Of a stretch of 64,000 bases of DNA, positions 7,320-45,757 are shown piece by piece. The stretch covers positions 3,122-67,121 of the forward strand of contig CAZFPT010000001.1 in NCBI GenBank assembly GCA_964521005.1, read 5' to 3'. The position numbers were made by a program, and so were the translations under genes. The number at the start of each line of letters is the position of its first letter. Position 1 is the stretch's first letter. A model generated the notes under the pieces. That model saw nothing but the letters and a program-made list of their open reading frames with translations. It ran no database searches and was not told where the DNA came from. Origin of the DNA: an uncultured Planctomycetaceae bacterium. GTDB lineage: Bacteria > Planctomycetota > Phycisphaerae > SM23-33.

Positions 7320-7356
7320 GCAAAGAACACGGCGGCGATCGGAATCGATCGCCGCC
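7320..7356 (-). terminator. hairpin terminator downstream of histone-like gene
   Basis: Perfect 11-bp stem ggcggcgatcg/cgatcgccgcc with loop gaat. On the minus strand it is followed by GUGUUCUUUGCG. Confidence 0.4.
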
Positions 7357-7409
7357 GTGGGTGTGACAGTCGATCGGCAGGGCAGCGCCCCGCCGAGGTC
7401 AGCCGAACA

Positions 7410-7877
7410 CTACTTCTTCTTGGACGACTTGCGGGTCGCTTTCTTGGCGGCCTTCTTCGTCGTCTTGCCAGCCTTCTTGGTGGACTTCTTCGCGCGCTTC
7501 TTGGTTTTCTTCGCCGCCTTCTTTGTGGCCTTCTTCGCGCGCTTCGTCGTCTTCTTCGCGCGCTTCGCGGTCTTCTTGGCAGCCTTCTTCGTTGTCTTGC
7601 GAGCCTTCTTGGCCGCCTTCTTGGTGGACTTCTTCGCTCGCTTGGCAGTCTTCTTCGCGCGCTTCGCGGTCTTCTTGGCCGCCTTCTTCGTGGTCTTCTT
7701 CGCGCGCTTCGCGGTCTTCTTGGTAGCCTTCTTCGTGGCCTTCTTCACGCGCTTTGCTGCCTTCTTGGCGCGACTGACCGACTTCTTCGCCGCCTTCTTC
7801 GTCGTCTTCTTCGCGCGCTTCGCGGTCTTCTTGGCCGCCTTCTTCGCCGTCTTCTTCTTTGCTGTCTTTTTGGCCAT
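7410..7877 (-). CDS. histone H1-like Lys/Ala-rich DNA-binding protein
   Basis: 155 aa made of KKAAKK/TAKRAKK repeats (MAKKTAKKKTAKKAAKK...). Start is M35 of the track ORF, with an AAAGAGG RBS. Confidence 0.7.
   Translation of the reverse strand: MAKKTAKKKTAKKAAKKTAKRAKKTTKKAAKKSVSRAKKAAKRVKKATKKATKKTAKRAKKTTKKAAKKTAKRAKKTAKRAKKSTKKAAKKARKTTKKAAKKTAKRAKKTTKRAKKATKKAAKKTKKRAKKSTKKAGKTTKKAAKKATRKSSKKK
7440..7860 (-). repeat. in-frame coding tandem repeats (degenerate units encoding AKKxxKK)
   Basis: The nucleotide sequence shows recurring 'gtcttcttcgcgcgcttcgcggtcttcttggc(c/a)gccttcttcg' units. Confidence 0.6.
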
Positions 7878-43700: not shown

Positions 43701-43965
43701 TTCGGGCGATGCTCACCAGAGCAGGCGGGCGTGGATTCGCCTGGTGGTCGAACGCGTGGGCCCCGGCGAGGGCACGGTGGAAATCGGCGGCAGGACGTTC
43801 GCCATTCCCCGCGCTCACACGCCGTGCAATGGCCCGTACATCCGAAACATCGAGATCGACCCGGACCTGCTCAAGGGCGTCAAGGAACTGACGTTCAAAG
43901 CCGCCGACGCCACCAACGGCAACGGGTTCCTGCTGGGGATGGCCTCGATCGTGACCGAGAAATAG
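40762..43965 (+). CDS. large secreted protein, possible clan GH-A glycoside hydrolase core
   Basis: Signal peptide (...FVLLGVAALVVAPAAG) and an acid/base-like 'WWNEPYLDLG' motif. An alternative GTG start at 40783 has an AGGAG RBS. The track ORF uses TTG at 40753. Confidence 0.45.
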   Translation: MTYRRLIVTHFSRWIAPFVLLGVAALVVAPAAGRPVPEKLQKTSLAKVLDTSSSIEDFMLTLSGGVFTEKVNRTTGKGQRVTKDLRLYFKRQDGEWLANVSGVASGFNQAATRGKILPDKSDKNTVAMMLNIGSDRWVEGDASAPYTIEIRIADGKVEGTYKGTFQGHAVEGEVSGVVRTGGWVNCTEKDGVIHVELNLGTKRVNWNNARWAVNDLGLPVNMSEHDGLVLTVETDKPRHDAWVDVGLMENDGSWYYLRDAAPLTQKSQTVVIDFDDFRHAEWIFNAAGTGPGADGNFDEDFHLDRKNIARIAIGTVNANGVGTVKFRVTDISLGKWKTTSPDPDKVTVSGQTYTVNGTGQVPDGIFGFHTAGGSDGQVSDLRVGSLRPLRAMAGGGAFVAPPNPKADVFLRVSTNYDRRQQVPPADWGADWARKCKSVGQKLGQAAKPYGDQVAVEWWNEPYLDLGRMLPGSVARNADKDQDRTPGKPVYMHGRKLESMVWTKVDGKVVPRDPSRFTYWSGRQLGIFYTDSFEIVAAEAKKIAPEMHMVGGFGFRWQEDDWAAWNLLYKPMIDQTIENLDGVCEHHYQGHTDAMAASYEVLVAYGMAKHGKRLIAYNTETNDLWDAPARGRSAATTQFGGKFKSRKRLIYNVRDILYCAIETPDKIRARAIHALWGGAKDNRVKIGQEIRDRKGRVKLTVTGTKWADSATLGDQNITAEKGKTLLILDVKAWSNRGGAVGLGEVTAKIGSATTKAPATAGSLPGKLKKNQTVEAQIAFVLPAAAKSDGIVTWNPGRGMRNIVHVHGPFGEADIAPHRRAGIDEGEYVALQFLKELRGSLVAAESSDEMIWVASSIDPRSKALVAVVYNDDYKTRSPAVQLKAPAGTSFVSGAVEYLVHGDDGDVGIRTEKIQRVGDKACAVDLKLPAAHAAKIVLRLKGSLPDSADLKRTQTFCKAPSKDVDPILHEMAPGESLSLPIALSGDAHQSRRAWIRLVVERVGPGEGTVEIGGRTFAIPRAHTPCNGPYIRNIEIDPDLLKGVKELTFKAADATNGNGFLLGMASIVTEK

Positions 43966-44136
43966 TCCGAGCTTGCATCGGCAGCCGGAGCAAACGCTCC
44001 GATTGCCAGGGAAAGCAGCGGGTCGGCCTGCGGGTTGGCCCGCTGTTTTTGTCGTTGTGGCTGCGGGGTCGCATGGGCTTCCAGCCGATGTTCCCTCTTC
44101 ACGCCAACTCCGTGACTCCTTTTCACCTTCGGTGAA

Positions 44137-44431
44137 CCTGCGTGTCGGCAGACACGGCCTGGAAGGCCGTGCGACGGTAAGCGTCGCATGGGCTTCGGAG
44201 CCCATGGTCTGTTCTGTTTTCGTCTTCGTCTTCGGCGATGCGCCCGCAACAAGTTGCGAGCCCTACAGCTGGCCCTGCAATTCTGTTTCGCCTTCGGCAA
44301 CCCTGCGTGTCGGCAGACACGGCCTGGAAGGCCGTGCGACGGTAAGCGTCGCATGGGCTTCGGAGCCCATGGTCTGTTCTGTTTTCGTCTTCGTCTTCGG
44401 CGATGCGCCCGCAACAAGTTGCGAGCCCTAC
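44137..44431 (+). repeat. 165-bp-period tandem duplication of a 130-bp hairpin-rich element (two full copies; 34-bp partial third copy at 44682-44715)
   Basis: Copies 44137-44266 and 44302-44431 are near-identical. Each contains the hairpins gtgtc-ggca-gacac, ggcc-tggaa-ggcc, cgacg-gtaag-cgtcg, catgggct-tcgg-agcccatg and cgcaac-aa-gttgcg. Confidence 0.75.
44187..44235 (+). terminator. intrinsic terminator-like hairpin + U-tract inside repeat copy 1 (second identical copy at 44352-44400)
   Basis: 8-bp stem CATGGGCT/AGCCCATG with a UCGG loop, then GTCTGTTCTGTTTTCGTCTTCGTCTTCGG. Confidence 0.45.
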
Positions 44432-44441
44432 GGTTGACCGA

Positions 44442-44509
44442 CCCCAACCAAGGGCGCCCGGCGTTGTGCAGCGACCCCCCAACCAAGGGTGCCCGGCGTT
44501 GTGCAGCGA
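44442..44509 (+). repeat. 35-bp-period tandem repeat (CCCCAACCAAGGGYGCCCGGCGTTGTGCAGCGA x2)
   Basis: Two copies at 44442-44474 and 44477-44509. Nearby is a 21-bp direct repeat CCGGCACAGCCCCGGGCACCC at 44617 and 44718. Confidence 0.6.
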
Positions 44510-44806
44510 GCCCAAGCGAGCTGAGCAACCCGGTTGGTCCGGATCGCGCTGCAGGTAGTGGTCTGACATCGCGACAGCCGGGTTGCTCCGTTCCTCCCTC
44601 GCTGCGCTCGGTCCGACCGGCACAGCCCCGGGCACCCGAAGTTTCGTTAGGTTCCAAGGAGTGATCGTCCCGCATCCACCTGCGATGCGCCCGCAACAAG
44701 TTGCGAGCCCTACGGCACCGGCACAGCCCCGGGCACCCTTGGTGGAGGCAGGACGCCCGCTGAGGCCGAAGCATACCGCCGCTTGTCGGGCCGCCCCGCC
44801 GGTCGC

Positions 44807-45757
44807 CTACTTCTTTCGGCCGCGTTTGGGAGCCTTCTTGGTCGCCGATTTCTTGCGGGTCTTCTTGGAGGCGGGCTTCTCTTCGCCCTTGGCGGCAGAG
44901 GTCTTCTTCTTGACCTTCTTCCTGCGGACCTTCTTGGCCGCCTTCTTGGCCTTCTTGGCCTTCTTGGCGACCTTTCGGCTGGCTTTGCGTTTGGGCTTGG
45001 GGGCTTTGTCCCGGTGGACGGCGTCGTACGCCCGGGCCGGTCGCCCCGCCAGTGTTCCCTCGCCGGTGGAGTCGTGGTCGGCCAATGCTGCCGGGGGCGG
45101 CGGGCCCATCTCGGGTGGCGACGCTTCGACGATCACCCGCACGGTCTCCTCCAGGCTGTCGGTGAGCGTGAAAAGGTCCATGTCCTCGGCGTCGATCTTG
45201 GCATGGCCGCTGTCGAGCATCGTCTCGCGGACCCAGTCGATCAGCCCGGACCAGTAACTCCGCCCGATGAGCACCACCGGGAAACGCATGCTCTTGCCGG
45301 TCTGGATCAGTGTCATCGAGTTGAAAAACTCGTGCAGCGTTCCGAACCCGCCCGGGAAGCACACAAACGCGTTGGCGTACTTCACGAACATCACCAGCCG
45401 GGCGAAGAAGTAGCGGAAGTCCAGCCGTACGTCCGCCCAGGGATTGGCGTTCTGCTCCATCGGCAGGTTGATGTTCAGCCCCACCGAGAGGCCGTTGGCG
45501 TCGTGGGCGCCGCGGTTGGCCGCCTCCATGATGCCCGGCCCGCCGCCGGTGATGATGCCGTACCCCTCGTTGCACAGCATGCTGGCGAGTTTGCGTGCCC
45601 GCCGGTAGTCCGAGGCGCTGCGGGGCGTGCGGGCGGACCCGAAAATACTGACGGCCGGTCCGACGCGGCTCATGGTCTCGAAGCCCTCGACGAACTCGCT
45701 CATGATACGGAAAACGCGCCAGGGATCCTCGTTCACAAAGTGAGGCAGATTCGACAT
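44807..45757 (-). CDS. LOG-family (TIGR00730; cytokinin riboside 5'-monophosphate phosphoribohydrolase / 'lysine decarboxylase-like') protein fused to C-terminal histone H1-like Lys-rich tail
   Basis: LOG motifs 'IFGSAR', 'GGGPGIMEA' and 'PGGFGTLHEFF'. The C-terminal ~70 aa are 'KRKASRKVAKKAKKAKKAAKKVRRKKVKKK...'. Start is MSNLPHF (M18), with a GAGAGGA RBS. Confidence 0.7.
   Translation of the reverse strand: MSNLPHFVNEDPWRVFRIMSEFVEGFETMSRVGPAVSIFGSARTPRSASDYRRARKLASMLCNEGYGIITGGGPGIMEAANRGAHDANGLSVGLNINLPMEQNANPWADVRLDFRYFFARLVMFVKYANAFVCFPGGFGTLHEFFNSMTLIQTGKSMRFPVVLIGRSYWSGLIDWVRETMLDSGHAKIDAEDMDLFTLTDSLEETVRVIVEASPPEMGPPPPAALADHDSTGEGTLAGRPARAYDAVHRDKAPKPKRKASRKVAKKAKKAKKAAKKVRRKKVKKKTSAAKGEEKPASKKTRKKSATKKAPKRGRKK

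Follow-up and report, generated by a model that had tools for sequence, protein, structure and literature searches.

A probable cluster of GTAG-type repetitive extragenic palindromes between two convergent genes of a Phycisphaerae bacterium

Repetitive extragenic palindromes (REPs) are a familiar class of small selfish elements, and GTAG-tagged ones have been reported in Planctomycetes and in Opitutus. The survey by Di Nocera et al. (2013, PMC3733652) describes such families in Rhodopirellula baltica, Planctomyces spp. and Opitutus terrae, and carries the hypothesis that REPs play a role in transcription termination and mRNA stabilization. Here we describe an 841-bp intergenic spacer (positions 43966-44806) in a stretch of 64,000 nucleotides from an uncultured Planctomycetaceae bacterium of the class Phycisphaerae (contig CAZFPT010000001.1), which is referred to below as the window. 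A preliminary description of this DNA had reported a tandemly duplicated array of hairpins in a convergent intergenic region of about 840 bp, and had proposed either a family of REP-like or miniature inverted-repeat transposable element (MITE)-like repeats acting as tandem terminators or a structured non-coding RNA (ncRNA). Our analysis points, with a probability of about 0.75, to a cluster of GTAG-type REPs of three kinds, named F, C and E, that resembles bacterial interspersed mosaic elements (BIMEs) and clusters of REP doublets forming hairpins (REPINs).

The spacer lies between two convergent genes, one encoding a protein of 1067-1070 aa on the plus strand (stop at 43965) and the other a LOG-family protein on the minus strand (stop at 44807), whose closest named homologs come from Phycisphaerae metagenome-assembled genomes (MAGs). 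Its left part is a tandem direct repeat with a period of 165 bp (44121-44274 and 44286-44439; Tandem Repeats Finder score 594, 97% matches), and the two near-identical 130-bp copies reported earlier (44137-44266 and 44302-44431) proved to be 100% identical over all 130 nt. Because of this identity, the 165-bp block, which comprises a doublet, a linker and F, is a very recent tandem duplication. The 32-nt module F (GCGATGCGCCCGCAACAAGTTGCGAGCCCTAC) occurs exactly three times, at 44235, 44400 and 44682, whereas none would be expected from 100 shuffles, and the last of these occurrences is what had been seen as a partial third copy. Further copies of the modules were not found elsewhere in the window, either by BLAST at a word size of 9 or by a pattern search that allowed 3 mismatches. 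Perfect hairpins with a stem of at least 7 bp are dense in the array, in that 6 of about 24 distinct ones in the 64-kb window fall within a stretch of 220 nt there. We agree with the earlier view that the locus is not a CRISPR array, in which repeats and unique spacers would alternate regularly in units of about 60-75 bp; here the period is 165 bp, the 'spacers' are identical and the F modules are separated by 165 and 282 bp.

Each tandem unit contains hairpins A (44122-44136), B (44141-44156), C (44153-44171), D (44170-44188) and E (44187-44206) in addition to F. The five consecutive palindromes of the preliminary description thus exist as hairpins, but several of them are mutually exclusive: B overlaps C, and C, D and E overlap one another, so that they cannot all form simultaneously. 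The main hairpins C, E and F have stems of 7-9 bp (C 7-8 bp, E 8 bp, F 8-9 bp with one G.T pair), loops of 2-5 nt and folding energies of -13 to -15.5 kcal/mol, and each carries a tetranucleotide tag directly 5' of the stem. They thereby combine a short palindrome with an unpaired GTAG-like tag at one end, as do REPs, taken here as imperfect palindromes of 20-40 bp with a stem of 6-13 bp and a short loop. For E, the earlier text had given an 8-bp stem with a UCGG loop, which holds, and the earlier title a UUCG loop, which does not, since the loop is closed by a U-A pair and is not a C(UUCG)G loop. C and E form an inverted heterodimer with the tags inside, hairpin D being the junction of both tags, and the doublet folds as one long imperfect hairpin around a GUAAG loop in the minimum-energy structure of 44137-44268 on the plus strand. 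Compared with each other, C and E show compensatory changes at two stem positions. Module F folds better on the strand that reads GTAG (-14.6 versus -9.4 kcal/mol on the complement), because its G.T pair corresponds to a mismatched C.A there; in two natural variants of F the T of this pair is a C, which gives G-C. The GTAG tag is present in 13 of 14 F copies and is preceded by C or T.

We then compared F with sequences from other genomes, scanning 22 nt of the module against one genome per species; the listed matches are a lower bound. With up to 5 mismatches allowed, at least 11 copies were found outside the window, on 7 contigs of three assemblies. Two of these are the Phycisphaerae MAGs D1M02_5 and D1M07_5; the third, a probably misbinned MAG, contributes two GC-rich contigs that had been assigned to "Woesearchaeota". 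At least six of these copies lie on 4 contigs of a single MAG (D1M02_5), and D1M07_5 also carries a LOG ortholog with 78% identity. The copies outside the window share the consensus CCGTAGGGCTCGCAACTTGTTGCGGGCGGAATGAC. None of the 12 exact copies, among them the three in the window, falls within a gene as defined by the GC content at third codon positions (GC3). Where a neighbouring gene could be called, the distance to the nearest gene 3' end is 10-540 nt (comparison loci L003, 36; L005, 10; L007, 83; L001, 131; L004, 179 nt); no neighbour was callable for four copies, in L002 (two), L006 (one) and L001. The L005 copy resides in a 742-bp convergent spacer that also holds C/E-type units, and in L003 F is part of a tandemly reiterated hairpin mosaic with periods of 148-189 bp. 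A scan of IMG/VR for F gave zero matches.

Several of these loci have features of their own. L003 and L006 are CAYOTW01 contigs of a MAG labelled Candidatus Woesearchaeota and carry REPs F of the Phycisphaerae type; one gene product in L003 ends like a PEP-CTERM anchor, and both are probably misbinned bacterial contigs. In L002, two direct repeats of 179 bp (446-624 and 2025-2203, 96% identical) each terminate in a REP F, and the 1.4 kb between them contains open reading frames (ORFs) with neither a Pfam match nor a coding GC3 signal. In L001 (4100-4396), F copies stand between repeats some 85 nt long that look like coding sequence (…RDADGDGTFEETLYYVTDAGHNVTAMV), which may reflect either a REP inserted within a gene or an error of assembly.

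C and E are variants of GTCG-CAYGGSC-loop-GSCCRTG and members of a tagged family that is widespread. When IMG/VR was scanned, without bias, with the degenerate pattern CAYGGSC-TTCCA-GSCCRTG, 26 stretches were returned. All 16 distinct matches with a GT[ACG][AG] tag are perfect palindromes, as opposed to 2 of 12 untagged ones (Fisher p = 5e-6), and many matches are followed by a second, inverted palindrome. The tag is GTCG in the window and GTGG, GTAG or GTAA in the relatives. REP C matches a GTAG-tagged copy in L004 at 96% over 27 nt, and L004 also contains an inverted dimer with the tags outside. A degenerate E-type REP that precedes the tandem units in the window matches tagged REPs in L004, L014 and L037 at 91-92%. 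A further tagged palindrome, GTGG-CACGGGC-ATCCT-GCCCGTG, was seen in L009 (6600-6618) between a gene of the AP-endonuclease family and its neighbour. These two genes abut in the window, where the REP-bearing spacer of L009 has no counterpart.

REPs resembling F were also found beside genes for REP-associated tyrosine transposases (RayT). Starting from Oter_2468 of Opitutus terrae, we gathered the RayT family and inspected two loci, L047 and L049, whose transposases (P0139 and P0209) score 77.1 and 87.1 bits against NF047646, the model for REP-associated tyrosine transposases with a cutoff of 80; P0139 also matches the structure of E. coli TnpA-REP (4ER8). The named relatives of both proteins are from Opitutaceae. 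The RayT genes have REPs on both sides, for instance GTAGGGCTCGAGCTTGCTCGATGCCC and GTAGGGCGCGACCTTGGTCGCGGCCC, of the form GTAGGGC-N-CG..-CTTG-..CG, and with these F agrees in its initial 10 or 7 bases, in the central CTTG and in the geometry of the hairpin. In a hand alignment of F and the RayT-flanking REPs, 56 of 57 stem cells pair, and three pairs covary (A-T/G-C/C-G, C-G/T-A, and five types at the outermost pair); this alignment was fitted to the structure and so leans towards it, and MAFFT set F one base out of register. At the level of sequence likeness, this shows F to be of the REP type carried at the flanks of RayT genes, which does not imply that the window's genome has a RayT. The two loci, at 9890-10630 in L047 and 9800-10640 in L049, are complete REPtrons in their own right.

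Orthologous spacers were identified through the LOG gene. In L009, L010, L011 and L044 (LOG 92% identical) the spacer measures 270 bp, in L012 (85%) about 200 bp, and the array is absent from all five. L008 (99%) was not assessable, as its contig ends inside F copy 3 (F3); it is an independent short-read assembly of a strain that is 99-100% identical, and a break inside F3 is the expected effect of a multi-copy k-mer. The DNA of the relatives resembles the window only over 43966-44050, at 89-99% identity. This conserved 3' untranslated region of the upstream gene comprises a hairpin at about 43978-44008 and a canonical intrinsic terminator (Table 1), which is kept in L009-L012 and L044, and the similarity stops at its T run; the sequence beyond differs. 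Since the relatives lack the array and conservation ends at the terminator, we take the array to have been inserted or expanded in this lineage specifically, beyond the real terminator. Together with the tags, the dispersed extragenic relatives and the likeness to RayT-flanking REPs, this absence supports the earlier suggestion of a REP/BIME-like family.

Table 1. Features of the convergent spacer, in window coordinates
Feature	Position	Strand	Details
Canonical intrinsic terminator of the upstream 1067-1070-aa gene	44013-44052	+	16-bp stem, -29.1 kcal/mol, z = -5.7, then UUUUU
Degenerate E-type REP	44068-44090	+	GTCG-CATGGGC-TTCCA-GCCGATG, one stem mismatch; third copy of GTCGCATGGGCTTC
Tandem unit copy 1	44121-44285	.	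165 bp: hairpins A and B, REP doublet C-E, T-rich linker, REP F, short spacer
REP C copy 1	44153-44175	-	GTCG-CACGGCC-TTCCA-GGCCGTG, -15.5 kcal/mol; copy 2 at 44318-44340
REP E copy 1	44183-44206	+	GTCG-CATGGGCT-TCGG-AGCCCATG, -13.4 kcal/mol; copy 2 at 44348-44371
T-rich linker	44207-44234	+	(TTCGTC)2.7 microrepeat; copy 2 at 44372-44399
REP F copy 1	44235-44266	-	GTAG-GGCTCGCAAC-TT-GTTGCGGGC-GCATCGC
Tandem unit copy 2	44286-44439	.	hairpin A degenerate here
REP F copy 2	44400-44431	-	exact 32-nt module
Two tandem 35-nt G units	44442-44511	+	35-bp tandem repeat 44442-44513, 2.1 copies; left arms of nested inverted repeats
Inner hairpin	44518-44593	.	19-nt arms, 84% complementary, 38-nt loop
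Inverted partial G unit	44616-44637	-	pairs with 44487-44504
REP F copy 3 (F3)	44682-44713	-	exact 32-nt module; 93 nt from the LOG stop codon
Inverted G unit	44717-44748	-	44717-44738 is a direct repeat (22 nt) of 44616-44637

The presence of the conserved terminator bears directly on the proposal that the array works as a set of tandem terminators, back-up or bidirectional, that insulate the two convergent genes. The stem of hairpin E qualifies as that of a terminator and, with its T-rich tail (GUCUGUUCUGUUUUC), passed a terminator scan twice, in the lax setting only; the published hypothesis on REPs in termination and mRNA stabilization (PMC3733652) would fit, and on the minus strand no terminator with a T run can be seen beyond the end of LOG, so that F3 could act as a 3'-end structure. 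However, the canonical terminator lies 140 nt upstream of hairpin E and is much stronger, hairpin E reaches only -13.4 kcal/mol, and the long U-rich tract claimed for it is indeed T-rich but is broken by G and C, its first run of four U coming 11 nt past the stem. The terminator-like sites (4 found versus 2.2 +/- 1.5 in shuffles) show no enrichment, the relatives do without the array at the orthologous spacer, and the hairpins are palindromic DNA repeats of dispersed families rather than signals specific to this locus. We thus regard the terminator function put forward earlier as unlikely. A structured ncRNA gene, made up of the array or of the 165-bp unit, seems highly improbable to us. The folding energy of 44102-44440 is below that of shuffles (z = -2.5 on the plus and -4.3 on the minus strand), but the palindromic repeats account for this, since as DNA they fold equally well on both strands. 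An Rfam search of the whole window gave no match at the gathering score and, for 43900-44900, only noise at E values up to 10, no sigma-70-like promoter site was found, and the array is not conserved in the orthologous spacers. With a terminator upstream and relatives that are free of the array, neither the tandem-terminator nor the ncRNA part of the preliminary description is supported.

A different origin has to be weighed for the right half of the spacer (44442-44748), in which two tandem G units (arm sequence CCAAGGGYGCCCGGSGYTGTGC) enclose an inner hairpin and F3 by pairing with two partial, inverted G copies. The 35-bp tandem repeat and the direct repeat noticed earlier both belong to this structure, the latter measuring 22 bp. 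The right half may be a MITE-like element, and one could extend this to perhaps the whole spacer as a MITE, or nested MITEs, with terminal inverted repeats and DDE-mobilised rather than moved by RayT. Its 28-nt arms (44477-44504 and 44721-44748) are 86% complementary, there is a second nested pair with duplicated arms, and the region folds as nested long-range helices. On the other hand, other copies of the G arm were found neither in the window nor in the 49 comparison loci nor in IMG/VR (zero matches), a target-site duplication was not identified, a REP (F3) sits inside the right half, and TIR-like arms, that is, arms resembling terminal inverted repeats, are confined to the right half, the left half having none. 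We therefore consider this explanation doubtful. That the 165-bp duplication is an assembly artefact, a collapse or expansion at the repeated F module, is very unlikely, even though the 130 nt are 100% identical between the units and the short-read assembly of the same population (L008) breaks inside F, which indicates that F confuses assemblers. The 5' ends of the units differ, with an intact hairpin A in copy 1 and a degenerate one in copy 2, and the junctions are distinct, unlike a simple assembler loop; moreover, comparable tandem REP clusters occur in L003 and in the literature. We give next to no credence to a repeat that encodes a protein with a duplicated 55-residue domain (165 bp being 55 codons). 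ORFs of 154, 158 and 170 aa do span the array, but they occur on both strands, as expected at 65% GC, and their GC3 of 0.61-0.65 lacks the third-position bias of the flanking genes (0.86-0.88), on which ground a protein-coding array was rejected.

Several observations weigh against a REP cluster of the BIME/REPIN kind. No gene for a RayT or other Y1 transposase was detected in the 64-kb window or in any locus that bears F, C or E, using a regular expression and a hidden Markov model (HMM). The former represented the HUH...Y motifs, including the class-3 Y----Q form, and covered the window and L001-L012, then 38 loci without the window, and finally about 360 kb in all with the window included; the latter was built from 15 RAYT/TIRYT sequences (supplement of PMC3733652) and run on the same 360 kb. 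A RayT profile scan of IMG/VR yielded two loci, neither with relevant REPs, and there was no RayT labelled Phycisphaerae among the best 120 profile matches. The link to RayT is drawn from similar, non-identical REPs in two genomes (L047 and L049). Furthermore, the C/E tag GTCG is rarer than GTAG or GTGG, and a scan of Joint Genome Institute (JGI) metagenomes for the doublet (GGAAGGCCGTGC-N(3-30)-GCATGGGCTTC) returned two chance matches only, one in an alcohol-dehydrogenase-like coding sequence and one unrelated. The comparison loci likewise contain no C-E doublet, so that as a replicating unit it is at most a candidate. The sequences searched include no relatives of hairpins A and B, of the T-rich linker or of any part of the right half. 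Finally, the window holds one cluster only in 64 kb, and tagged hairpins elsewhere in the window do not exceed shuffles (23 versus 26 +/- 6).

Another reading is a lineage without RayT, in these 64 kb and possibly in the whole genome, in which REPs persist and multiply locally by tandem duplication, and in which the right half is an undescribed mobile element of nested inverted repeats with a captured REP. We consider it decidedly unlikely. If it were true, the REP system of Phycisphaerae would comprise three families that cluster together, along with a new partner element.

Returning to the BIME/REPIN-like cluster, which we prefer, the following course of events can be envisaged. The REPs would have been brought in by a RayT (HUH/Y1) transposase that acts on single strands, either by cut-and-paste or by copying, and that would recognise, on one of the DNA strands, the hairpin together with its 5' GTAG. 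Since insertions would be tolerated in a spacer lying past the ends of two genes, REPs may have gathered at this site. Slippage during replication or unequal recombination, known from other clusters of REPs and REPINs, would then have given rise to the tandem duplication. Effects on transcripts, such as protection of the 3' end of the LOG mRNA by F3, would be secondary.

Further observations concern genes and hairpins of the window. The LOG/TIGR00730 protein (44807-45757, minus strand) has a Lys/Ala-rich, histone-H1-like C-terminal tail, which is kept only in its closest relatives (P0001-P0004, 310-324 aa), most other homologs being about 250 aa long. Exact look-ups of this protein, with two alternative start codons, and of the 1067-aa protein gave no match, whereas the AP-endonuclease protein matched Logan assemblies SRR15425353 and SRR15425354, whose contigs stop short of the spacer. 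Elsewhere, at 7328-7359, there is a perfect 14-bp hairpin (CACGGCGGCGATCG-gaat-CGATCGCCGCCGTG) about 50 nt downstream of a minus-strand gene that ends at 7410 and whose product has a KKK tail; on the minus strand this hairpin is followed by TTCTTTG, and it is probably the terminator of that gene.

Our results extend GTAG-type REPs and BIME/REPIN-like clusters to Phycisphaerae and provide their sequences, which are usable for annotation, for masking repeats that break assemblies and for strain typing. They also caution against calling such hairpin arrays terminators or ncRNA genes. They open no new mechanism, REP/RayT biology being established in other phyla.

BIMEs of E. coli are mosaics of REPs in alternating orientation with fixed linkers in 3' intergenic regions, and the cluster in the window is alike; their REP sequences are unrelated to those described here. 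Compared with REPtrons (RayT, TnpA-REP, PDB 4ER8), the window lacks a RayT gene and the stem sequences differ, while F and the REPs of L047 and L049 have GTAGGGCTCG, the CTTG loop and the geometry of the hairpin in common. Unlike the REPINs of Pseudomonas fluorescens SBW25 (Bertels & Rainey 2011, PMC3116915), the doublet is a heterodimer, with arms about 76% alike by our own reading, it has no adjacent RayT gene, and recurrence of the same doublet at many loci was not seen in the JGI metagenomes or the comparison loci. Like these REPINs, it consists of two inverted REPs separated by a short spacer and folds as a single long hairpin, and, again as in SBW25 (PMC3116915), the cluster repeats near-identical doublets in tandem together with their flanks, about 700 bp in total. 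The closest parallel in described features, rather than in consensus sequences, is with the GTAG REPs in the survey by Di Nocera et al. (PMC3733652). The host differs, Phycisphaerae being a class absent from that survey, and so does the C/E tag GTCG. In common are stems of 6-13 bp, loops that are short and often TY, a GTAG-type tag (variants GTMG and GTGG) left unpaired at one end, an extragenic position mostly in convergent or unidirectional spacers, and the occurrence of inverted dimers, heterodimers and clusters that are reiterated in tandem together with flanking DNA.

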